DNA of 64,000 nucleotides from Alphaproteobacteria bacterium (GCA_965232515.1 CBDDPY010000002.1:4096001-4160000), one strand, 5' to 3'. Counted from the first letter of the stretch, positions 46,206 to 56,572 are shown. The notes: generated by a model from the sequence alone, not told the origin. Numbers and translations: made by a program.

Positions 46206-47771
46206 TCAGTCGTCGTCCGACTCGTCGTCGCTCCAGTCCGCCGTCGAGACGCGGCCGCGTTCGGCGCCGGTGTCGTCATCGACACAGACCATGCTGACGT
46301 CATAGCCCCAAAGCCGGCGGGCGTGTTTCAACACCTCGTCGCGGGACTTTTCGGCCAGCGGAATGCCCTTGCGCATGGCATGACGCAGATGCAGCTGACG
46401 GTCGCGTTTGAGATCGACGTCGATGACCTGGATATCTGGATCGATGACGCCGGGATCGTAGCTGCGGGCCAGCATCTCGCGCACCTGCCGGTAGCCGTCC
46501 TCGTCGTGAATGCCGGACACCATGAGATGGCTGTCGTCGGCATCGTCGGTCAGCGCGAACAGCTTGAACTCGCGGATCAGGCGCGGGCTTAGATATTGCA
46601 GGATGAAGGATTCGTCCCGGTAATTGGCCCAGGCATCCTTCAAGGTGCCGCGCCAGTCGCCGTTGCCGGCGATCTCGGGGAACCATTCCTTGTCTTCCGG
46701 CGTCGGCTCCATGCACATGCGCTTGATGTCCTGCATCATCGAGAAGCCGAGCGCATAGGGATTCAGGCCGGAATAGCGCGGGTCGTCGAAGTCGGCCTGG
46801 AACACCACGTTGGCGTGGCTGTGCAGGATCTCCAGCATGGTGCCTTCGGTCAGCAGGCCGCGGTCGTACAGCTCGTTGGCGATGTAGTGGTGCACGAAGG
46901 TGGCGCAGCCCTCGTTCATCACCTTCGTCTGACGCTGCGGATAGAAGTACTGCGCGATCGTGCGCACGATCCGCAGCACCTCGCGCTGCCACGGCTCCAG
47001 CACCGGGCTGTTGCGCTCGATGAAGAACAGCACGTTCTCTTCCGGCAGCTTGTGCTGCCGCATGCGTTCGGCCAGCTCCTTCTCCAGCTCGGTTTCCTGC
47101 GCGCCGTCGTGCAGTTGCGGCACCGTGCGCCAGAGATCGCTGAAGGTGCGGTCCTTGTAGTCCTGGGCTTCCTGGGCCCGCGCTTTCAGCTCGCGGCTGG
47201 TCAGCTCGCGCGGCCGGCGATAGCGGAACACCGCCTGATCCATCAGCGCATGCGCGGCATCGAGCGTGTCCTCGACCGCCTCCATGCCGGCCTTTTCCTC
47301 GCAGGTGGCGATGAAAGCCTTGGCGTACTGGAAGTAGTCGAGCACGCCGTCGGCATCGGTCCACTGCCGGAAAAGGTAGTTGTTCTTGAAGAAGTGGTTG
47401 TGGCCGAAGGCGGCGTGCGCCATCACCAGCGTCTGCAGCGCCATGGTGTTCTCTTCCATGACGTAGCTGATGCAGGGATTGGAGTTGATCACGATCTCAT
47501 ACGCCAGGCCGGTATAGCCCTTGCGGTACATCTTCTCCTCGCGGGCGAAGCGCTTGCCGAAGGACCAGTGCGGGTACATCAACGGCATGCCCAGCGAGGA
47601 ATAGGCGTCCAGCATCTGCTCGGACGAGATGATTTCGATCTGATTGGGATAGACGTCGAGGCCGAGGTCGTTCAACGCCACGTCCTCGATCGCATCGAAG
47701 GCGGCCGACAGCCGTTCGAAGCTCCAATCGGGCTCCTCGAACAACGGCTGCGTCTTACGCTTGGCGCCCAT
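46206..47771 (-). CDS. spoVR: SpoVR-family protein (YcgB)
   Basis: YPNQIEIIS, HWSFGK, AYEIVINSNPC, HAAFGHNHFFKNN, TKVMNEGCA. Confidence 0.95.
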   Translation of the reverse strand: MGAKRKTQPLFEEPDWSFERLSAAFDAIEDVALNDLGLDVYPNQIEIISSEQMLDAYSSLGMPLMYPHWSFGKRFAREEKMYRKGYTGLAYEIVINSNPCISYVMEENTMALQTLVMAHAAFGHNHFFKNNYLFRQWTDADGVLDYFQYAKAFIATCEEKAGMEAVEDTLDAAHALMDQAVFRYRRPRELTSRELKARAQEAQDYKDRTFSDLWRTVPQLHDGAQETELEKELAERMRQHKLPEENVLFFIERNSPVLEPWQREVLRIVRTIAQYFYPQRQTKVMNEGCATFVHHYIANELYDRGLLTEGTMLEILHSHANVVFQADFDDPRYSGLNPYALGFSMMQDIKRMCMEPTPEDKEWFPEIAGNGDWRGTLKDAWANYRDESFILQYLSPRLIREFKLFALTDDADDSHLMVSGIHDEDGYRQVREMLARSYDPGVIDPDIQVIDVDLKRDRQLHLRHAMRKGIPLAEKSRDEVLKHARRLWGYDVSMVCVDDDTGAERGRVSTADWSDDESDDD

Positions 47772-47809
47772 ACCTAACCTGCCTCCGTCCGTTGCCGGCG
47801 GGCCACCGC

Positions 47810-49120
47810 TCAGACCTGCTCGACCTGCTTGGCGAACAGTTCGCGGAAAGCCGGATAGATGTCACCGGGCTTGGCGATGCGCTTCATTTCGAAGTTCTGC
47901 CATTGCTCCTTCACGGTCCGATAGGCCTGCCACAAGGCCGCGCCGGACTCGGAATCGCCGAACAGGCCCATCTCGCGCTCGTCGATGATCTCGACATAGG
48001 TGAAGTACTGGCAGACCGGCATCAGCTCCTGATGCAGCAGGGCGACGCAACGTTCACTGTCGCCGGAGAAGTTCTCGCCGTCCGACGCCTGGGCGGCATA
48101 GATGTTCCAGGTGTCGGTCGGATAGCGGTCGGCGACGACCCCGGCCATCTCGCGCAACGCCGTGCTGACCACCGTGCCGCCGGTCTGCGGGCTGTAGAAG
48201 AAGGTTTCCTCGTCAACCTCGGAAGCTTCGTGCGTATGCCGGATGAAGACGACGTCGACATGCTCGTAGCGGCGCTTCAGGAACATGTGCAGCAGCACGA
48301 AGAAGCGCTTGGCCAGATCCTTTTCGCGCTGCCCCATGGAGCCGGAGACGTCCATCAGGCAGAACATGACGGCGTTGGTGTTCGGCTCGGGCCGTTGTTC
48401 GTTATAGCGGTAACGCACGTCGAACGGATCGATGAAGCCGACGACCTTGCGCCGCCGCTCGAGCCCCTCGAGCTCCTCGATCAGCGCTTTCAGCTTTTGC
48501 TCGTCCTCGTCGGTCCGGCCGGTCTTGGCCTCCAGCGCCGTAATCTGCCGGCGCAGGTCCTCGAGCGTCGAGTTCTTCGGCCGGGCCAGCGCGATTCGAC
48601 GCCCCAGGCTATTGCGCATGGTGCGCGCGACATCCAGGTTCGACGGGTTGCCGACCCGGCTGAAACCGGCACGATGACGCGTGAAAGAGACGATCTCCTT
48701 CAGCGTCGTCTTGACCAGGTTCGGCAGCTCCAGATCCTCGAAGAACAGATCCAGGAATTCCTCGCGCGACAGCGCGAACTGGAATTCGTCCTCGCCGTCG
48801 CCCTGGTCGGTGGCCTTCTTGCCGCCACCACCCTCGCCCTGTTGCGGCTTCGGGATGCGGTCGCCGGTCTCGAACTCCTTGTTGCCGGTGAACACCCGCT
48901 CGCGGATGCCGCCCTTGCTGCTGTGACTGAAGCGCGGCTCGCCGATGCCCTTGGTCGGGATCGTCACGGTCTCGCCACTGGCGACATCCGTGATCGAGCG
49001 GTCCCGCACCGACTTGTTGACGACCTCTTTGATCTGGGCGCGGGCCCGTCGGATAAAGCGCTGGCGGTTGCCCAGGCTTTTGCCCTTGGGATTTTGCCGC
49101 CGATCGATGAACTGGTGCAT
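47810..49120 (-). CDS. yeaH: YeaH/YhbH-family (DUF444) protein
   Basis: IDRRQNPKGKS..NRQRF, FCLMDVSGSM, GGTVVS, AQASDGEN. Confidence 0.95.
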   Translation of the reverse strand: MHQFIDRRQNPKGKSLGNRQRFIRRARAQIKEVVNKSVRDRSITDVASGETVTIPTKGIGEPRFSHSSKGGIRERVFTGNKEFETGDRIPKPQQGEGGGGKKATDQGDGEDEFQFALSREEFLDLFFEDLELPNLVKTTLKEIVSFTRHRAGFSRVGNPSNLDVARTMRNSLGRRIALARPKNSTLEDLRRQITALEAKTGRTDEDEQKLKALIEELEGLERRRKVVGFIDPFDVRYRYNEQRPEPNTNAVMFCLMDVSGSMGQREKDLAKRFFVLLHMFLKRRYEHVDVVFIRHTHEASEVDEETFFYSPQTGGTVVSTALREMAGVVADRYPTDTWNIYAAQASDGENFSGDSERCVALLHQELMPVCQYFTYVEIIDEREMGLFGDSESGAALWQAYRTVKEQWQNFEMKRIAKPGDIYPAFRELFAKQVEQV

Positions 49121-49135
49121 GGCCTCTGGCCGGGC

Positions 49136-51070
49136 TCAGCCCGCCTTATTCACGCGCATGTACCATTCGACGAGACGCCGGACCTGACGCTGGGTGTAGC
49201 CGCGCTCGACCAGACGCGAGACGAAGTCGTTGTGTTTCTTCTCCGTTTCGCTGTCCTTCTTCGAGCCGAAGCTGATCACCGGGAGCAGATCCTCGACCTG
49301 ACCGAACATCCGTTTCTCGATGACGTCGCGCAGCTTCTCGTAGCTGGTCCAGGACGGGTTCTTGCCGTCGTTCTGGGCCCGCGCACGCAGCACGAACTTC
49401 ACCACCTCGTTGCGGAAGTCCTTCGGATTGGCGATGCCGGCCGGCTTTTCGATTTTCGCCAGCTCGGCGTCCAGCACCTCGCGGTCGAACAGCTGACCGG
49501 TATCCGGATCCTTGTAGTCCTGCTCCTCGATCCAGGCATCGGCATAGGCGATGTAGCGGTCGAACAGGTTCTGCCCATACTCGGTATAGGATTCGAGGTA
49601 GGCCTTCTGGATCTCGTTGCCGATGAACTCGGCATACTTCGGCGCCAGGTCGGCCTTGATGAACTCGAGGTACTGGTCCTCTGTCTCGCGCGCGAACTGC
49701 TCGCGCTTGATCGCCTGCTCCAGCACATACATCAGATGCACCGGGTCGGCCGCGACCTCCTCGATGTCGTGGTTGAAGGTCTCGGACAGCACCTTGAAGG
49801 CGAACCGCGTGCTGACGCCGGTCATGCCTTCGTCGACGCCGGCCGCGTCGCGGTATTCCTGCATCGACTTGGCCTTCGGGCCAGTGTGCTTCAGGTTCTC
49901 GCCGTCATAGACCCGCATCTTGGCGTAGAGCGTCGAGTTCTCGTGCTCGCGCAGGCGCGTCAGCACGCTGAAGCGGCTCAGGATTTCGAGCGTTTCCGGC
50001 GCGCAGGGCGCGTCGCCGAGCTGACTTTCCCGCAACAGCTTGTGATAAATCTCGGCTTCCTCGGTGCCGCGCAGACAATAGGGCACCTTGACCACGGAAA
50101 TCCGGTCGAGGAAGGCCTCGTTGTTCTTGTTGCTCTTGAACTGCTGCCATTCGGCCTCATTCGAGTGCGCCAGGATGATGCCCTGGAACGGGAAGGCGCC
50201 AAAGCTCTCGGTGCCGAGATAATTGCCTTCCTGCGTGGCGGTCAGCAGCGGGTGCAGCACCTTGATCGGCGCCTTGAACATCTCGACGAATTCCAACAGT
50301 CCTTGAGTCGTTCGGTTCAGGCCGCCGGAGAAGCTGTAGGCGTCGGGGTCGTTCTGGCTGAAATGCTCGAGCTTGCGGATGTCGAGCTTGCCAACCAGGG
50401 CGGAGATGTCCTGGTTGTTTTCGTCGCCGGGTTCCGTCTTGGCGACGCCGACCTGACGCAGCTTCGACGGCATCATCTTGACGACGGCGAACTTCGAGAT
50501 ATCGCCGTCGAATTCGTCCAGGCGCTTGACCGCCCAGGGCGACATCAAGCCATTTAACCGGCGCCGCGCGATACCGTACTTGTCTTCAAGCAGATCGCCC
50601 ATGCGCGCCGGATCGAACAGACCGAGCGGCGATTCGAACACCGGGCTGACCTGATCGCCGGCTTTCAACACGTAGATCGGGTTCTTTTCCATCAGCAGCT
50701 TCAGACGCTCGGCCAGCGTCGATTTGCCGCCGCCCACGGGGCCGAGCAGATAAAGCACCTGCTTGCGCTCTTCGAGGCCCTGCGCGGCATGCTGGAAGTA
50801 GCCGACGATCCGCTCGATCGTCTGCTCCATGCCGTAGAAGCCGCTGAATGCGGGATAGCGCTTGATGGTTCTATTGAGGAAAATGCGGCCCAATCGCGAG
50901 TCCGAACTGGTGTCGATCAGTTCAGGTTCGCCGATGGCGTCGATCATGCGTTCCGCCGCCGAGGCGTACATCAGGGGGTGGTCGCGGCACCCGAGCAGAT
51001 AGTCGTGCAGACTCATCTCCTCGGAGGCTTCACGCTGATAATTTTCCGAATATGCTTCGAAAACGTTCAT
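49136..51070 (-). CDS. prkA: PrkA/YeaG-family AAA serine protein kinase
   Basis: LLGPVGGGKS, EPGDENNQDIS, EFVEMFKAPIKVLHPLL, VRRLVEWY. Confidence 0.96.
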   Translation of the reverse strand: MNVFEAYSENYQREASEEMSLHDYLLGCRDHPLMYASAAERMIDAIGEPELIDTSSDSRLGRIFLNRTIKRYPAFSGFYGMEQTIERIVGYFQHAAQGLEERKQVLYLLGPVGGGKSTLAERLKLLMEKNPIYVLKAGDQVSPVFESPLGLFDPARMGDLLEDKYGIARRRLNGLMSPWAVKRLDEFDGDISKFAVVKMMPSKLRQVGVAKTEPGDENNQDISALVGKLDIRKLEHFSQNDPDAYSFSGGLNRTTQGLLEFVEMFKAPIKVLHPLLTATQEGNYLGTESFGAFPFQGIILAHSNEAEWQQFKSNKNNEAFLDRISVVKVPYCLRGTEEAEIYHKLLRESQLGDAPCAPETLEILSRFSVLTRLREHENSTLYAKMRVYDGENLKHTGPKAKSMQEYRDAAGVDEGMTGVSTRFAFKVLSETFNHDIEEVAADPVHLMYVLEQAIKREQFARETEDQYLEFIKADLAPKYAEFIGNEIQKAYLESYTEYGQNLFDRYIAYADAWIEEQDYKDPDTGQLFDREVLDAELAKIEKPAGIANPKDFRNEVVKFVLRARAQNDGKNPSWTSYEKLRDVIEKRMFGQVEDLLPVISFGSKKDSETEKKHNDFVSRLVERGYTQRQVRRLVEWYMRVNKAG

Positions 51071-51726: not shown

Positions 51727-51899
51727 GTCACTAAATTCGAGAATATGATCGCCAACGCGTAGATGTGATGCGTCAACCGCCGTCCTAACAATTACGCGGC
51801 ACTGTCGATGTCGATCCGAAAAAGTCGACATCGATCGCAAGTGAAGCAGGACAATTTGGGAGGTCCGGGCGGCGATCAGATGGCGGGGATTTGCGTTCG

Positions 51900-53216
51900 A
51901 TGAAACATCAGCGCCCGGAAGATCTGCGGCCCGAGATCGCGCTGCTGCTGGCCTGCGCCCGAAGTACCTACGACGACGACGCCAGGGCGCGTATTGCCGG
52001 CCTGTTGCGAACCCCGCCGGACTGGACCTACCTGGTGCAAACCGCGATCGATCACGGCGTTTCGCCGCTGTTGTGTCGGGCCATGCTGCAGGTATTTCCC
52101 GATGCCGTGCCTGATGATGTGCGGGCGGCCGCAGGAACGCATCTCGACGATAATGACGCCGACAACCGTTCGCGTACATCTGAGCTGTTGCGCATCCTTG
52201 CGGCGCTGGCGCAACGGAACATTCCGGCCATTCCGTTCAAAGGCCCGGCCGTGGCCGAACGGATCTACGGCGACTTGTCGCTGCGGCGGTTTCGCGATCT
52301 GGACTTCTTGCTTCGCGAATCCGACATCGACGCCGCGCTCGACGTGCTGCGGCAACTGGATTATCCGACCGAGACCGGCTTCGTCTCGGCGCGCGATCCA
52401 GCCTTTCGCCTGACTCCGGCGCAAACCCAAGCGTTCCGCGACTATGCCGGCGAGTACATCTTCTACAAACGCGACCAAAGCGTGGTGATCGAGCCGCACT
52501 GGCATTTCGCGCCCGCCACCTTGAGCGTCGACATCGACTATACGGCGTTGTGGCGCCGGACGTTCGATGCCGACCTGGCCGGCGCAACAGTCCGCACGCT
52601 GACGCCCGAAGACGAATTGCTGGTGCTTTGCGTCCACGGCTCGAAGGAAATCTGGACGCGCCTGCAATGGATCTGTGACGTCGCCGAACTGATCCGCGCC
52701 TATCCCGGCCTCAATTGGGTCGCAACGCTGCAGCGGGCCGAACGGCAGGGCTGCGAGCGCATGCTGTTGCTGGGACTGTCGCTGGCGCATCGGTTGCTGC
52801 AGGCGCCGTTGCCGCCGACGGTGCGCAAGCTGACCGAGCAAGCGGCCGTAAACGTGCTGGTGCGGGATGTCGAACGCGCGCTGTTCGCCGACCGCGACGC
52901 GCCGACGTCGATCTATTCGGTGTCACTGTTCCGGGTTCGGATGCGCGAAAGACTGCGCGATCGTTGGCGTTACGTCTGGCGCACGATCACCACGCCGCGC
53001 ATTCAGCATTTCGAGATGGTCGCCTTGCCGGATGCGTTGTTCTTCGGCTACGTGCCGGTCAAGCTCGTACACGACTATGTGCTGCTGCCGCTCTGGCTGC
53101 TGGCCAAGCGGGTGCGCGCGGCCATCCTGTCGACCGCAAATCGACCCGTGCAGGAACCGGTGGCCGACCGGACGCCGCCGCCGCGTGACGGCCGACGTCC
53201 GGTTAAACCAACCTAA
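51900..53216 (+). CDS. Nucleotidyltransferase, NTP_transf_5 family (type found in lasso-peptide and HPr-rel clusters)
   Basis: DWTYL...AIDHGV.PL; FKGP..A..IYGD..LRRFRDLDFL (DxD); IEPHW; LCVHGSKE.W.RLQWICDV. Confidence 0.9.
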   Translation: MKHQRPEDLRPEIALLLACARSTYDDDARARIAGLLRTPPDWTYLVQTAIDHGVSPLLCRAMLQVFPDAVPDDVRAAAGTHLDDNDADNRSRTSELLRILAALAQRNIPAIPFKGPAVAERIYGDLSLRRFRDLDFLLRESDIDAALDVLRQLDYPTETGFVSARDPAFRLTPAQTQAFRDYAGEYIFYKRDQSVVIEPHWHFAPATLSVDIDYTALWRRTFDADLAGATVRTLTPEDELLVLCVHGSKEIWTRLQWICDVAELIRAYPGLNWVATLQRAERQGCERMLLLGLSLAHRLLQAPLPPTVRKLTEQAAVNVLVRDVERALFADRDAPTSIYSVSLFRVRMRERLRDRWRYVWRTITTPRIQHFEMVALPDALFFGYVPVKLVHDYVLLPLWLLAKRVRAAILSTANRPVQEPVADRTPPPRDGRRPVKPT

Positions 53217-53223
53217 CGCGGCG

Positions 53224-53403
53224 TCAGACCTGACCGTTTTGGCCGTACGGCACCGTGGCCGTGCCGGCCGCGGCCTGCTTGGCCTTGGCCGAAAGCAGCA
53301 ACGCGACAGCCGGTGCCGTCGCCGCGGCGACGCCTGCCTTTTTCAGGAATTTCCGACGGTCGCTGTCATGCGACGTCTCGGGGGTCTTTTTGCTGTCCGA
53401 CAT
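53224..53403 (-). CDS. 59-aa twin-arginine-leader peptide, putative RiPP precursor
   Basis: GAGGAG RBS; MSDSKKTPETSHDSDRRKFLKKAGVAAATAPAVALLLSAKAKQAAA-GTATVPYGQNGQV; dedicated sigma54 promoter. Confidence 0.8.
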   Translation of the reverse strand: MSDSKKTPETSHDSDRRKFLKKAGVAAATAPAVALLLSAKAKQAAAGTATVPYGQNGQV

Positions 53404-53532
53404 AACGTTCTCCTCACCATTACTTTTGTTGTTTTGGCTTCTCGGCAATACGCGCCAAAAAAACGCTGCACGATCCGATTGCAAGGTCCAGCACAGCTCC
53501 AAACCAAACCCAACAACATCAAGTACTGAAAC

Positions 53533-53548
53533 AGCAATTTCCGTGCCA
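53533..53548 (-). promoter_or_regulatory. sigma54 (-24/-12) promoter of the peptide gene
   Basis: TGGCACG-GAAA-TTGCT: exact consensus with the obligatory GG-N10-GC spacing. Confidence 0.85.
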
Positions 53549-53600
53549 ATACAATTAACCTCAAAAATGCCGGATTTCTGGATTTTGGCAAAGGTGCGAC

Positions 53601-53636
53601 TGTAAAGAATTCCGACAATCGTCGGTATTCTTTACA
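53601..53636. promoter_or_regulatory. Inverted repeat: candidate enhancer-binding-protein site and/or terminator
   Basis: TGTAAAGAATTCCGAC-aatc-GTCGGTATTCTTTACA (15/16 pairs), about 80-115 bp upstream of the predicted start site; overlaps the GMC stop codon. Confidence 0.65.
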
Positions 53637-55179
53637 TGGCGTCGCGATTCAGATGTTCAGCAAGGCGAAGCGCGAGCGCCACCAACGTCAGCGTCGGATT
53701 TGAGCAGCCTGCGGTCGGAAACACGGCACTGCCCGCGACATAAAGGTTGCCGATACCATGCACGCGGCAGTTCGCATCGACCACGCCCTGCCGCGGGTCA
53801 TCATGCATTCGCAAGGTGCCGATGTGGTGGCCGCTGTTGACCGAGCGGCGCAACCAGGTTTCGCTGCTGACATCGACCTGCACCCGACCCGTGCCGGTTC
53901 GGCCCGCCTCGAGGCCGATAAGTTCGTGGGTCCGGCGAATGCTCCGGACCTCACGCTCGCCCAAACGCCAATCGACCCGCGCCTGGCGCAGGCCGAGGCT
54001 GTCTCGGGTATCGGCAAGCGTGACACGGTTGTCCGGGTTCGGCGCCGGCTCGACGCGGCTGTGGAAGTTAAGGAAACCGACGGGCGGGCGGCCGCCGACG
54101 ACTTTGCGGAACAACGCGCGCCCGACACCGTCAATATCGCCGGCGACATTGCGGACATGCGCGCCCAGATCTTCGGGCAGGCTGCCGTCGCCAACGGCGT
54201 CGACGATCGATTTCAACGACGCCACGCCGGCGGAGCGCTGGCCGACGGCCTGCAGCACGACGGTGATGTTGAGCAGCTCCTCCCGGCGTTGTACGCCGGC
54301 CGGCAGGATCAAGATGCCGTGGAACCTGCGATCGACGTCGTAGGCGCGCACGGCCATATCCGGGTCGCTCGGCGCCATGCGGCTTGAGGCCAGCAGCCGA
54401 TGGTCGGTGAAGAAGCGCCCGACGAGATCGCCGCCGTTGCCGAGACCGCCACGCCGGCGCCGGTCCGACAACAGCATCAACCGCGCGTTCTCGATGGCGC
54501 CACAGGCCAGGACGTAGCGATGGCCGGTCACCCGGAAACCGATGCCGGAAAGCGTGGCGCACCGCAGTCCGGTCGCCCGCGCGGCCGTGTCATCGGTCTC
54601 GATCTCGACGACGTTGGCGTGCAGATAGACCGTCACGTTGTCGGCGCGAACCAGATCTTCCCGATAGGCCTGGCCGAAGCGCGTCGGCGGACCCCGCCGA
54701 TAGATCCCGGTCTGAATTCGCGCCGGATCGAACGGCAACGGCGCATCGTCATCCTGGCCGGGCCAGGAGGAATTGCCGTAATCGAATGAACCGGTCTCGC
54801 AGATCGCTTCGGCGCGCCGATAGTAGGGAACCAGCGCGTCGCGGCCGAACGGCCAACCGCTATGCGGCACCCAGGGACGCGCCTCGAAATCGATCTCGTC
54901 AAAGGGACGGCAATTGCCTTCCCAATGGTTGGTGCTGCCGCCGAAGTAGCGCAGGCGGGTGGCGTCCAGCGGATCGTATCTGTCATCGACGACCTCGCCG
55001 GCATAGAGTGCCTGGGTCTCGGCCGCGAACTCGAAGCCGCCGCTTTCCAGCACGACCACGCGATGCCGGGTGCCGGCCAGTTCACGGGCGATACTGATCC
55101 CGGCCGCGCCCGCGCCGACGACAACGATATCGGCATCGATGATGGTGCCCGCCGGCAGGCTGCGCGCGTCGAGGATCAA
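53632..55179 (-). CDS. GMC-family FAD-dependent oxidoreductase
   Basis: VVGAGAAG, FGGSTNHW, LACGAIENARL, VGRFFTDH, HHIGTLRM, GVVDANCRVHG, SNPTLT; TTG start abuts the upstream TAG. Confidence 0.92.
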   Translation of the reverse strand: MILDARSLPAGTIIDADIVVVGAGAAGISIARELAGTRHRVVVLESGGFEFAAETQALYAGEVVDDRYDPLDATRLRYFGGSTNHWEGNCRPFDEIDFEARPWVPHSGWPFGRDALVPYYRRAEAICETGSFDYGNSSWPGQDDDAPLPFDPARIQTGIYRRGPPTRFGQAYREDLVRADNVTVYLHANVVEIETDDTAARATGLRCATLSGIGFRVTGHRYVLACGAIENARLMLLSDRRRRGGLGNGGDLVGRFFTDHRLLASSRMAPSDPDMAVRAYDVDRRFHGILILPAGVQRREELLNITVVLQAVGQRSAGVASLKSIVDAVGDGSLPEDLGAHVRNVAGDIDGVGRALFRKVVGGRPPVGFLNFHSRVEPAPNPDNRVTLADTRDSLGLRQARVDWRLGEREVRSIRRTHELIGLEAGRTGTGRVQVDVSSETWLRRSVNSGHHIGTLRMHDDPRQGVVDANCRVHGIGNLYVAGSAVFPTAGCSNPTLTLVALALRLAEHLNRDAM

Positions 55180-56361
55180 CTACTCGAGCGCCCGGATCAG
55201 CGCAACGGCGTCGTCGAGAGACGACATCGGCAGCGCATAACACTCGACGCCGGCGGCCCAATCGACCATCGCCTTGACGCGCTCGACGTTCAGCGGCGCC
55301 GGGATCGCCAAGCACTCGTCCATCATCCGGTGCAGGGCGGCCACCTTGCCGATCGGTTCCAACGCCGTTTCGGCATCGGCCGCATAGCGCGGGAAGATCA
55401 GGCGACGCACGGGCTGCGCCGCATTTGACGTGGGCCGCATGTCGGCCGGCGGCGACAGGTATCGCACGACCTTGCCGTCCCCGCGGTGGTGCGTTTTCAA
55501 GTCGGCGAGTTCGGGATAATAGGGCGTCATCAGATCCCAGCCCTCGCGCTTGAAGCACATCGACAGCGGCACGGGCACGGCCTGGAACGTGGATTCCGAC
55601 AGCAGCGCGACTTCGTCGGAGAAGTACTTGAACCCTGCGCGGCAGAGCGCGGCCGTCAGCGACGACTTGCCGCTGCCGGGCGCGGCGGGCAGCAGCGTGC
55701 AGGCCCGACCGTCACTGACCACGCCGGCGTGGATATTCAAAAAGTAGTCGGCGCCGCGCAGTGACAGCTGCCAAATCAAGCCCTTCACGATCGGCGCCAG
55801 TTGGTCGTAACGCGCGCAGCGGCAAAACGGTGATTGGTCGAGATAGATCAGATGCCCGTCGCGGGTCGCCACGATGTCGACCAAGCTGTCGGCCGGCGCA
55901 GTCGCAACGGCGAGATGCGCGATCGCCGTATGGACCCATTCGATCTGCGCCGGCTCGTTGCAACGCACCTCGACGCGATGATCCAGCAGCGCATAGTGCC
56001 GGCGCTCGGCGCTTGGCACGGCCGCGAACGGCGGCAGGCCGCCATCCGCTTCGAGCGCCGGCGGCGCGGGCACTTCCGGCTCGCGTGGATTGGCGCCCTG
56101 CAACAGACCCAGCGTGCGCCACTGCGCCAGGATATCGGCCACATGCCGTTCGGCCTCGCTGTCGGCGAAGCCGAACGTCGCCGACATCGCCGTCGCGATC
56201 GCCGCCGGTGAGACGCCTTCCTCCAACTGGCACCAAACATAGGTCGCCGTCGTGTTGAGCGCGTAGATCTCCTGCGCCGCGTCGGCGTAGAGCAGCCCTT
56301 CATCACCGAGGATGAAGAGATGCACGTCGTCGCCTGGTCGAACCGCCGCGGTCACGGGCAC
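55180..56361 (-). CDS. PqqD/RRE domain fused to an HPr-kinase-related P-loop kinase
   Basis: N-terminal GDEGLLY...IYALNTTATYVW..L...IA..M...F...A...V...L.....GLL (PqqD fold); C-terminal IHAGVV, PGSGKSSL, YFSDEVALL, LIFPRY. GTG 56361 follows GGGAG. Confidence 0.88.
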   Translation of the reverse strand: MPVTAAVRPGDDVHLFILGDEGLLYADAAQEIYALNTTATYVWCQLEEGVSPAAIATAMSATFGFADSEAERHVADILAQWRTLGLLQGANPREPEVPAPPALEADGGLPPFAAVPSAERRHYALLDHRVEVRCNEPAQIEWVHTAIAHLAVATAPADSLVDIVATRDGHLIYLDQSPFCRCARYDQLAPIVKGLIWQLSLRGADYFLNIHAGVVSDGRACTLLPAAPGSGKSSLTAALCRAGFKYFSDEVALLSESTFQAVPVPLSMCFKREGWDLMTPYYPELADLKTHHRGDGKVVRYLSPPADMRPTSNAAQPVRRLIFPRYAADAETALEPIGKVAALHRMMDECLAIPAPLNVERVKAMVDWAAGVECYALPMSSLDDAVALIRALE

Positions 56362-56572
56362 GCTCCCGCCATTTCTTGGTTTTTCGCTCCGGCCCAACCT
56401 AATAGGCCGGAGAAGCTTGTAAATAGGCTAACGGCCGAGCCATTCGGCGCGGTGGCGACAAACGCAATCGTGATTTGGTCCGGCGCGACACGATCGGAAA
56501 AGATATCGCTCAGGCGGGGCCGGGCGAAGGTGGCGGCGGCATGTCCGTTGCGACCGTAGATGGGACCTGATC

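Follow-up and report, generated by a model that had tools for sequence, protein, structure and literature searches.

A candidate Gram-negative relative of the LPP clusters: an alphaproteobacterial locus pairing a twin-arginine-like peptide with a fused RRE-kinase and a nucleotidyltransferase

Background

What is the substrate of a kinase that carries its own peptide-binding module, and could it be a short peptide encoded in the same locus? The question is raised by four genes in a 64,000-nucleotide stretch of an alphaproteobacterial genome (GCA_965232515.1, CBDDPY010000002.1:4096001-4160000; hereafter the window, with positions counted from its first letter). They encode a fusion of a PqqD-type RRE (recognition element of RiPPs, peptides that are made by the ribosome and modified after translation) to an HprK-like kinase, a GMC-family flavoenzyme, a 59-residue peptide with a twin-arginine motif, and a nucleotidyltransferase of the NTP_transf_5 family. 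A reading made from the sequence alone (the sequence-only reading) had seen here a lasso-free, RiPP-like system yielding a linear modified peptide for export by the twin-arginine translocation (Tat) pathway. Here, I show that this interpretation is partly supported: gene linkage, conservation and a structural model support the twin-arginine peptide as the candidate substrate of a lasso-free system, while a Gram-positive precedent for such a class has already been published.

HPr-kinase homologues and nucleotidyltransferases are indeed on record as tailoring enzymes of lasso peptides, as the sequence-only reading had stated. The accessible text of the review PMC8498205 describes kinase homologues that put a phosphate on the C-terminal Ser of lasso precursors of the paeninodin type and, in pseudomycoidin, a nucleotidyltransferase that adds one or two hexoses to that Ser phosphate. 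Lasso-free clusters of Bacillota for linear polyphosphorylated peptides, abbreviated LPP (lppA-K-B-S-D-N, Paenibacillus alginolyticus), have been reported by Popov et al. 2026 (PMC13381572). According to the portion of that article available here, the kinase LppK places up to four phosphates on core Ser3, next to a signal-peptidase-like leader cleavage site, the clusters lie in capsule loci, and lasso and LPP leaders dock through the motif [Y/W]xxPx[L/V]. The authors call LPP restricted to Bacillota, and the words twin-arginine, Proteobacteria, Pseudomonadota and Gram-negative are absent from the available text, the supplementary data of which might list other phyla. A search of the accessible literature returned no description of a proteobacterial form of the cassette discussed below, and no case of a Tat export signal serving as a RiPP leader.

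Results

The four open reading frames (ORFs) are confirmed on the strands and in the families first proposed for them (PF05402 and PF14907 are matched, and the HprK-related model TIGR04352 is matched below its cut-off). The TTG start of the GMC gene directly abuts the TAG stop of the kinase gene, and 7 bases separate the stops of the converging nucleotidyltransferase and peptide genes (Table 1). Within the class, 30 of 401 sampled genomes hold a match to the fusion at E <= 1e-10 (about a dozen of them full-length, that of G270 to the kinase only), and 20 fusion loci from 20 genomes were compared. A 744-residue glycosyltransferase-fused relative (L029 in G012, 25% identity) was left out of the locus counts, L066, L067 and L069 are duplicates of L056, L057 and L028, and a frame in L068 (E 0.0096, without RR) was not counted as a peptide. 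A pattern search from the single fusion protein recovered one distant relative only; the 13-sequence alignment being too variable for a pattern scan, a 4-sequence alignment was used. Against a large protein database, the fusion profile matches at least 294 clusters at E <= 1e-10.

The sequence-only reading had taken the peptide for the partner of the enzymes, and homologous loci do contain it. A homologous peptide is encoded in 15 of the 20 fusion loci, and an adjacent NTP_transf_5 gene in 17 (10 confirmed by Pfam, 7 resting on 37-46% identity to the window protein). Some loci carry tandem peptide copies, namely three in L056 and two each in L058 and L059, and the copy in L071 is cut by the contig end. 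Accessory genes differ between loci: sugar-nucleotide epimerases or dehydratases lie near four of them, and PlsC-type acyltransferases occur in three. The neighbour clustering of the 20 loci revealed no conserved dedicated peptidase or exporter, as had been anticipated for the window.

The peptide is no chance frame. A GGAG stands 7 nt upstream of its ATG, and the product contains RRKFLKK and a 17-residue hydrophobic stretch; the three features of a Tat signal, that is RRxFLK, a hydrophobic stretch and an AxA site, are all present, and the Tat-signal model TIGR01409 is passed narrowly (17.6 bits, cut-off 16.7). The family leader reads RRxFLxxxGxxAxxxPxV/I..LLL. Among the 18 locus peptides RR is invariant and F and L are kept in at least 90%, and in a pooled set of 138 peptides anchored on RR both arginines are near-invariant, with F in 137, L in 135, G in 135 and P in 134. 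Such position-by-position conservation exceeds the needs of a generic Tat signal. A leader hidden Markov model (HMM) built from related loci and run against 120,753 six-frame ORFs of the genome retrieves the window peptide at E 1.2e-15, the next match being at 3.6e-4; in bits, the window peptide scores 59.2 and the other Tat-type proteins of the same genome at most 22.5.

NCBIfam holds no family covering any of the 18 locus peptides. The peptide profile matches at least 1366 clusters of the large database at E <= 0.001; among the 120 matches listed, every named one is a 'hypothetical protein', and all lack a Pfam domain. Two subtypes can be told apart, a short-core subtype A (the window, L056, L057 and L070-L075), of which the L056 peptides are 49-53% identical to that of the window, and a longer subtype B with a conserved Gly/Asn-rich core, which dominates the database matches. 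Subtype B (L058, L059, L061, L062, L064; database entries P0121-P0240) is a large unannotated family of about 90 residues, in which the conserved core GNNGFGNGGGDGVPGNSG..SPNA.QK..D.VR follows a YAxAxSG junction.

Past the leader, a hydroxyl residue recurs at a fixed distance. An AxA follows the hydrophobic LLL in most peptides, just before the hydroxyl position (AAA, residues 44-46, in the window). Counting from the conserved Pro, position +19 is Ser in 126 of 137 pooled peptides, Tyr in 2 and Thr in 1, usually with Gly next; among 19 locus peptides, S, T or Y stands exactly at Pro+19 in 12 and within Pro+17 to Pro+20 in 17. The window residue at this position is T50, with T48 and Y53 (followed by G54) as alternatives. 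The constant spacing from docking motif to hydroxyl suggests a simple ruler mechanism.

The fused RRE is the proposed reader of this leader. The RRE profile of the fusion family matches the lasso RREs TbiB1 (5v1u, 1.3e-10), TfuB1 (6jx3) and PbaB1 (9x90), as well as LppB (9x8z, E 0.0014). The proposal that the RRE recruits the peptide is supported by a predicted complex in which the leader is placed on the RRE; the full-length fusion entered with an alignment of 117 rows and the peptide with one of 18. The three models score 0.83, 0.84 and 0.83 and the best of three controls 0.02. Among solved complexes 58 of 80 attain that mark, and among mismatched pairs 2 of 110; since RRE-leader complexes have already been solved and the profile matches them, such a pass speaks for likeness to known complexes and is not proof of binding. 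Agreement between the runs is 69% of contacts or more, and the predicted local distance difference test score (pLDDT) of the peptide is at least 64. The best-defined contacts join peptide residues 31-38 (PAVALLLS) to fusion residues 42-51 in the PqqD domain, with an expected error of 0.5-0.8 A, and peptide residues 45-47 and 50-53 are modelled against kinase-domain residues 206, 210, 221, 307 and 352-369.

In the kinase, G241, G243, K244, G255, D261 and K283 are invariant across 117 sequences, as are the P-loop and the Asp of an S-D-E/D motif. A database copy of the fusion starts 14 codons further in. In the kinase tree, subtype B loci cluster at a support of only 86/75 and the deep nodes are open, so that no claim of co-evolution is made.

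The nucleotidyltransferase is probably the second tailoring enzyme. Its DxD motif (D136/D138) is invariant in 110 homologues. A sequence search against solved structures found nothing, and the nearest solved folds to its AlphaFold2 model (pLDDT 94) are ANT(2'')-Ia, MenT1 and LnuA, with FKRP further down the list. ANT(2'')-Ia and LnuA are small-molecule O-nucleotidyltransferases, MenT-type enzymes are nucleotidyltransferases and FKRP is a phospho-alcohol transferase; given these fold neighbours, the enzyme likely uses a nucleotide-activated donor, from which either a sugar or a nucleotide would be transferred. The only studied relative of the enzyme, as described in the accessible text of PMC8498205, adds a hexose to a phosphate, and not a nucleotide.

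Discussion

Because a Tat-like peptide stands beside an RRE-kinase and a nucleotidyltransferase in many Alphaproteobacteria, the cassette is likely an unstudied Gram-negative cousin of LPP. As far as the available text of PMC13381572 goes, both are lasso-free and comprise precursors, an RRE and an HprK-like kinase, next to the NTP transferase LppN in LPP and a PF14907 enzyme in the window; in either, a cluster holds one to three precursors, conserved at the N-terminus and variable at the C-terminus; and the modified hydroxyl, which here is a candidate, lies just past a signal-peptidase-type cleavage site. The differences are equally plain. The RRE is a separate protein (LppB) in LPP and the N-terminal domain of the kinase here; the LPP leader reads YxxPxVLxHQxIxFETxxS and shares only PxV with RRxFLxxxGxxAxxxPxV..LLL; the LPP hosts are Bacillota, whereas the host of the cassette is an alphaproteobacterium. 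Moreover, LPP has an archaeal-type SpI-like peptidase (LppS) and an MsbA-like exporter (LppD), whereas neither occurs within about 5 kb here nor is conserved in the 20 loci, the genome not having been searched for a SipW-type gene. In short, the cassette is of LPP type, but its RRE is fused, its leader resembles a Tat signal, and a dedicated peptidase or pump is missing nearby. As to the linear phosphopeptide class put forward by the sequence-only reading, its lasso-free character is supported, and the class has its Gram-positive precedent in LPP.

Lasso systems of the paeninodin and pseudomycoidin kind, as the accessible text of PMC8498205 presents them, use an HPr-kinase homologue and a nucleotidyltransferase on a C-terminal Ser, whereas the candidate acceptor here is an internal residue whose spacing from the leader motif is fixed. 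The lasso B2 protease (Transglut_core3, PF13471) has no match in the whole host genome (7.39 Mb, 96% complete), and Asn_synthase (PF00733) has 10 matches in the genome and none in the 64-kb window. The reading that the enzymes serve a lasso peptide from another part of the genome was rejected for want of a B2 protease. The absence of lasso and export genes that had been asserted for the window stands for these two families, and, in flanks of about 5 kb each, for any protease, cyclase or exporter; outside these flanks the window was not scanned for radical SAM, YcaO or ABC genes.

Another system with the same three enzyme types is HPr-rel-A, defined in NCBIfam by the HprK-related kinase A (TIGR04352) and a PqqD-family chaperone (TIGR04353), and not known to have been characterised. 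The window proteins differ from it in that kinase and PqqD fall below both cut-offs (19.7 bits against 35 for the PqqD part), are fused, and have a 59-residue peptide as candidate substrate.

The cassette may be pictured to act as follows. The N-terminal PqqD/RRE domain would grip the peptide at PAVALLLS, as the model and the conservation suggest. A hydroxyl about 19 positions further on (T50, or else T48 or Y53) would be held at the fused P-loop kinase and phosphorylated, and the nucleotidyltransferase would then extend the phosphate with a sugar or nucleotide from its activated donor. Least well supported is a possible oxidation of the appended group by the GMC enzyme, which would be cytoplasmic. 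The leader would double as a twin-arginine signal, the modified peptide leaving by the Tat pathway (TatC is encoded in the same genome) and being trimmed by the general signal peptidase after the AxA (AAA, 44-46), so that Tat and this peptidase would stand in for the SpI-like peptidase and the ABC pump of LPP. The chemistry, the way out of the cell and any part played by the GMC enzyme are what I infer. I consider it probable, with moderate confidence, that the locus forms a self-contained cassette for peptide modification, related to LPP but Gram-negative, and that it works by these steps. A bolder scheme, in which the Tat signal is the RiPP leader, the RRE reads its hydrophobic core, decoration past the cleavage site precedes export, the arrangement is widespread in Proteobacteria and, where a GMC gene is present, the flavoenzyme may even bind the decorated peptide and ride out on its signal, is tentative and rather doubtful.

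Several observations weigh against the proposed cassette, besides the limit on the docking scores given above. Four loci lack the peptide, three of them on contigs of 4.6-6.7 kb and the fourth in G031; there the kinase stands alone, and the nucleotidyltransferase (44.6% identity) and the peptide (E 4.7e-16) lie on another contig, where their genes converge in the same arrangement as in the window, making G031 the sixteenth genome with a peptide. The kinase domain reaches 104 bits with TIGR04352, under the cut-off of 200, and the P-loop is absent from the listed peptide contacts of the complex model. TIGR01409 matches only 5 of 18 locus peptides at E <= 0.01, and the L038 peptide stops five residues short of the acceptor position. 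At the conserved position the window peptide carries Thr in place of Ser, and the available text of PMC13381572 reports that Ser-to-Thr and Ser-to-Tyr variants were not phosphorylated by LppK, and that the LppN transferase was inactive in the one published test. Finally, the GMC gene occurs in 4 of the 20 fusion loci and abuts a cassette gene in three: in the window, in G128 (L060; 50% identical, directly after the transferase gene) and in L057, where it belongs to a different subfamily and stops 3 bases short of the kinase start. The fourth, in L058, stands about 3.5 kb from the cassette.

The caution originally attached to the membership of the GMC gene was therefore well placed, its family being mostly located away from the cassette; orthologues of 39-48% identity occur in many genomes without the fusion. 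The enzyme matches PF05199 (80.3 bits) and DAO (E 9.7e-14), with DAO and NAD_binding_8 matches at residues 17-47 marking the Rossmann start that binds flavin adenine dinucleotide (FAD); GMC_oxred_N (PF00732) stays just below its cut-off (21.6 against 23 bits), and there is no signal peptide of its own. Its nearest solved relatives are the catalytic subunit of FAD-glucose dehydrogenase (6a2u_B/8hdd) and the large subunit of fructose dehydrogenase (7w2j), both matching its C-terminal 140 residues at E 5e-25 to 2e-19. The small subunits of these two dehydrogenases carry a Tat signal.

In all ten GMC orthologue loci inspected outside cassettes (L078-L087), the gene has a neighbour coding for a small protein whose N-terminus bears an RR motif; such partners are mutually homologous, occupy stop-to-stop frames of 135-253 codons and belong to no Pfam family. 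To judge by sequence, the pair looks like a two-gene dehydrogenase unit, in keeping with the multi-subunit FAD dehydrogenases. This pairing is missing for the window and G128 copies, which lack the small partner and abut cassette genes instead. Given that the GMC gene is present in few loci and that its orthologues pair elsewhere with an RR protein of their own, the enzyme appears to be an occasional recruited accessory of the cassette and not part of its core, and the peptide does not appear to be its usual small subunit.

The last point bears on a rival view, namely that the peptide serves the GMC dehydrogenase as a carrier subunit with a Tat signal, by analogy with the small subunit of FAD-glucose dehydrogenase, and that kinase and transferase are unrelated neighbours. 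The kinship of the enzyme with catalytic subunits of multi-subunit dehydrogenases and the constant small RR partner of its orthologues, in whose place the window copy has just the 59-residue peptide, would favour it. However, no cassette leader is matched (E <= 0.1) in the 1.5-kb flanks of any of the ten orthologue loci, the peptide is far shorter than the frames of the usual partners, and its homologues stand by kinase and transferase where there is no GMC gene, as in L056. The carrier subunit was rejected on the ground that the orthologues pair with a different RR-motif protein, and I regard it as very improbable. More serious, though still unlikely, is the idea that the Tat-like sequence is only an RRE docking site, its likeness to Tat signals a by-product, and that the modified peptide stays in the cell or exits otherwise. 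Conservation in the hydrophobic region is at the level of single residues, with Pro followed by V/I much as in the lasso and LPP docking motif (YVAPAV of L038 and FVAPAV of a further peptide of the host genome were counted as fitting it), and the scarcity of matches to the Tat model among the locus peptides points the same way. Yet nothing would lead a docking motif to copy the Tat consensus RRxFL, which is invariant here, and export by Tat would agree with an AxA after the hydrophobic stretch in most peptides and with 20 loci that share no exporter or peptidase.

A somewhat lower probability is given to kinase and transferase acting on some other substrate, such as a larger protein or the precursor of a polysaccharide, with the peptide as a regulator or scaffold and not the product. 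One of the other enzyme sets of the host genome sits among glycosyltransferase genes, LPP clusters lie in capsule loci according to their authors, and the canonical HPr-rel-A set encoded there begins with a Cys-rich RR-signal protein of 218 residues and not with a peptide; the genome meant is again that of the host. On the other side, the kinase carries a peptide-binding module in its fused RRE, a conserved hydroxyl keeps a constant spacing from the docking motif, and tandem peptides with varied cores resemble precursor genes. As for a chance ORF beside orphan enzymes, short genes in high-GC genomes do compete with many spurious frames; the HMM match, the homologues in fusion loci and in the database, and the ribosome-binding site before the ATG contradict it, and its probability is negligible.

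Should the proposed cassette be confirmed, the 2026 LPP family would extend from Bacillota to Proteobacteria. It would also be a natural case of a general Tat export signal doing double duty as a RiPP leader. Under the bolder scheme, the fusion and peptide clusters counted above would represent a widespread class of Tat-exported modified peptides. In practical terms, a trio whose only annotations are 'PqqD family chaperone', 'nucleotidyltransferase family protein' and 'hypothetical' would gain a candidate substrate, and hence a direct assay.

Genomic setting and minor observations

Table 1. Position of the genes and of the sites discussed, in window coordinates
Feature	Position	Strand	Basis
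NTP_transf_5 nucleotidyltransferase, 441 aa	51891-53216	+	PF14907, E 1.8e-57
59-aa precursor peptide (candidate), short-core subtype A	53224-53403	-	ORF, ribosome-binding site, homologues in 15/20 fusion loci
Candidate acceptor stretch T48-A-T50-V-P-Y53 (T50 at conserved Pro +19)	53245-53262	-	acceptor role inferred
PAVALLLS, peptide residues 31-38; predicted RRE docking strand within signal-like hydrophobic region	53290-53313	-	
Twin-arginine motif RRKFLK, peptide residues 16-21	53341-53358	-	conservation; TIGR01409
AT-richer spacer, 228 bp, between GMC gene and peptide gene	53404-53631	-	
Short terminator-like hairpin inside the spacer	53612-53625		consensus scan, weak evidence
GMC-family FAD oxidoreductase, 515 aa	53632-55179	-	PF05199, E 2.6e-22
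PqqD(RRE)-HprK-like kinase fusion, 405 aa	55180-56397	-	PF05402 and TIGR04352
HprK-like P-loop kinase domain, fusion residues 187-404	55186-55839	-	TIGR04352, E 7.3e-30
Walker A of the kinase, G241-S-G-K244-S	55663-55677	-	
RRE (PqqD) domain, fusion residues 40-99	56101-56280	-	PF05402, E 2.3e-9

The consensus scan gave one promoter-like site, on the wrong strand, the number of sites being not above that in shuffled sequence. The flanks (about 5 kb each side) hold prkA/DUF444/spoVR on one side and NUDIX, LuxR-type regulator, FecR, OmpA and CHASE2 kinase genes on the other. The former make up a complete prkA/DUF444 (yeaH-like)/spoVR-like operon that adjoins the cassette (46206-51070, minus strand); no link of these genes to the cassette was found in the other fusion loci compared.

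RNA-seq contigs from three libraries under another organism label contain a copy of the locus 95-99% identical to the window (51800-56500), with parts of all four genes. Word depth is 2-6 and a poly-A run has no reads; since these are contigs, a silent control stretch is lacking and DNA carry-over is possible, they are no evidence of transcription. Their sequence points to a near relative of the host in those samples.

The host genome holds three PqqD/kinase/NTP_transf_5 sets, of which that in the window is one. The canonical HPr-rel-A set (C2:6231479-6234568) runs on one strand, with a 218-aa Cys-rich RRRLLKG protein first, followed by a 110-aa PqqD protein, an HprK_rel_A kinase (365 bits) and an NTP_transf_5 protein. 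The third set (C2:5678668-5682461) combines the three enzymes with a glycosyltransferase, amid glycosyltransferase genes, and encodes between kinase and glycosyltransferase a 55-aa peptide (5680977-5681168, minus strand) of the form RREFMRK...FVAPAV...AAAQASNQS.

Gene fusion and duplication among these enzymes extend beyond the RRE-kinase. In L073 (5055-7190), P0246, P0247, P0257, P0303, P0315, P0096, P0098 and L029, cassette enzymes are fused to other tailoring domains; NTP_transf_5 is joined to an S-adenosylmethionine (SAM) methyltransferase in proteins of about 700 aa, and the RRE-kinase to a PF11397 glycosyltransferase. In G292 (L061, 8852-11411), two tandem RRE-kinase fusions stand by a single subtype B peptide, together with an NTP_transf_5 gene and a GDP-mannose 4,6-dehydratase.

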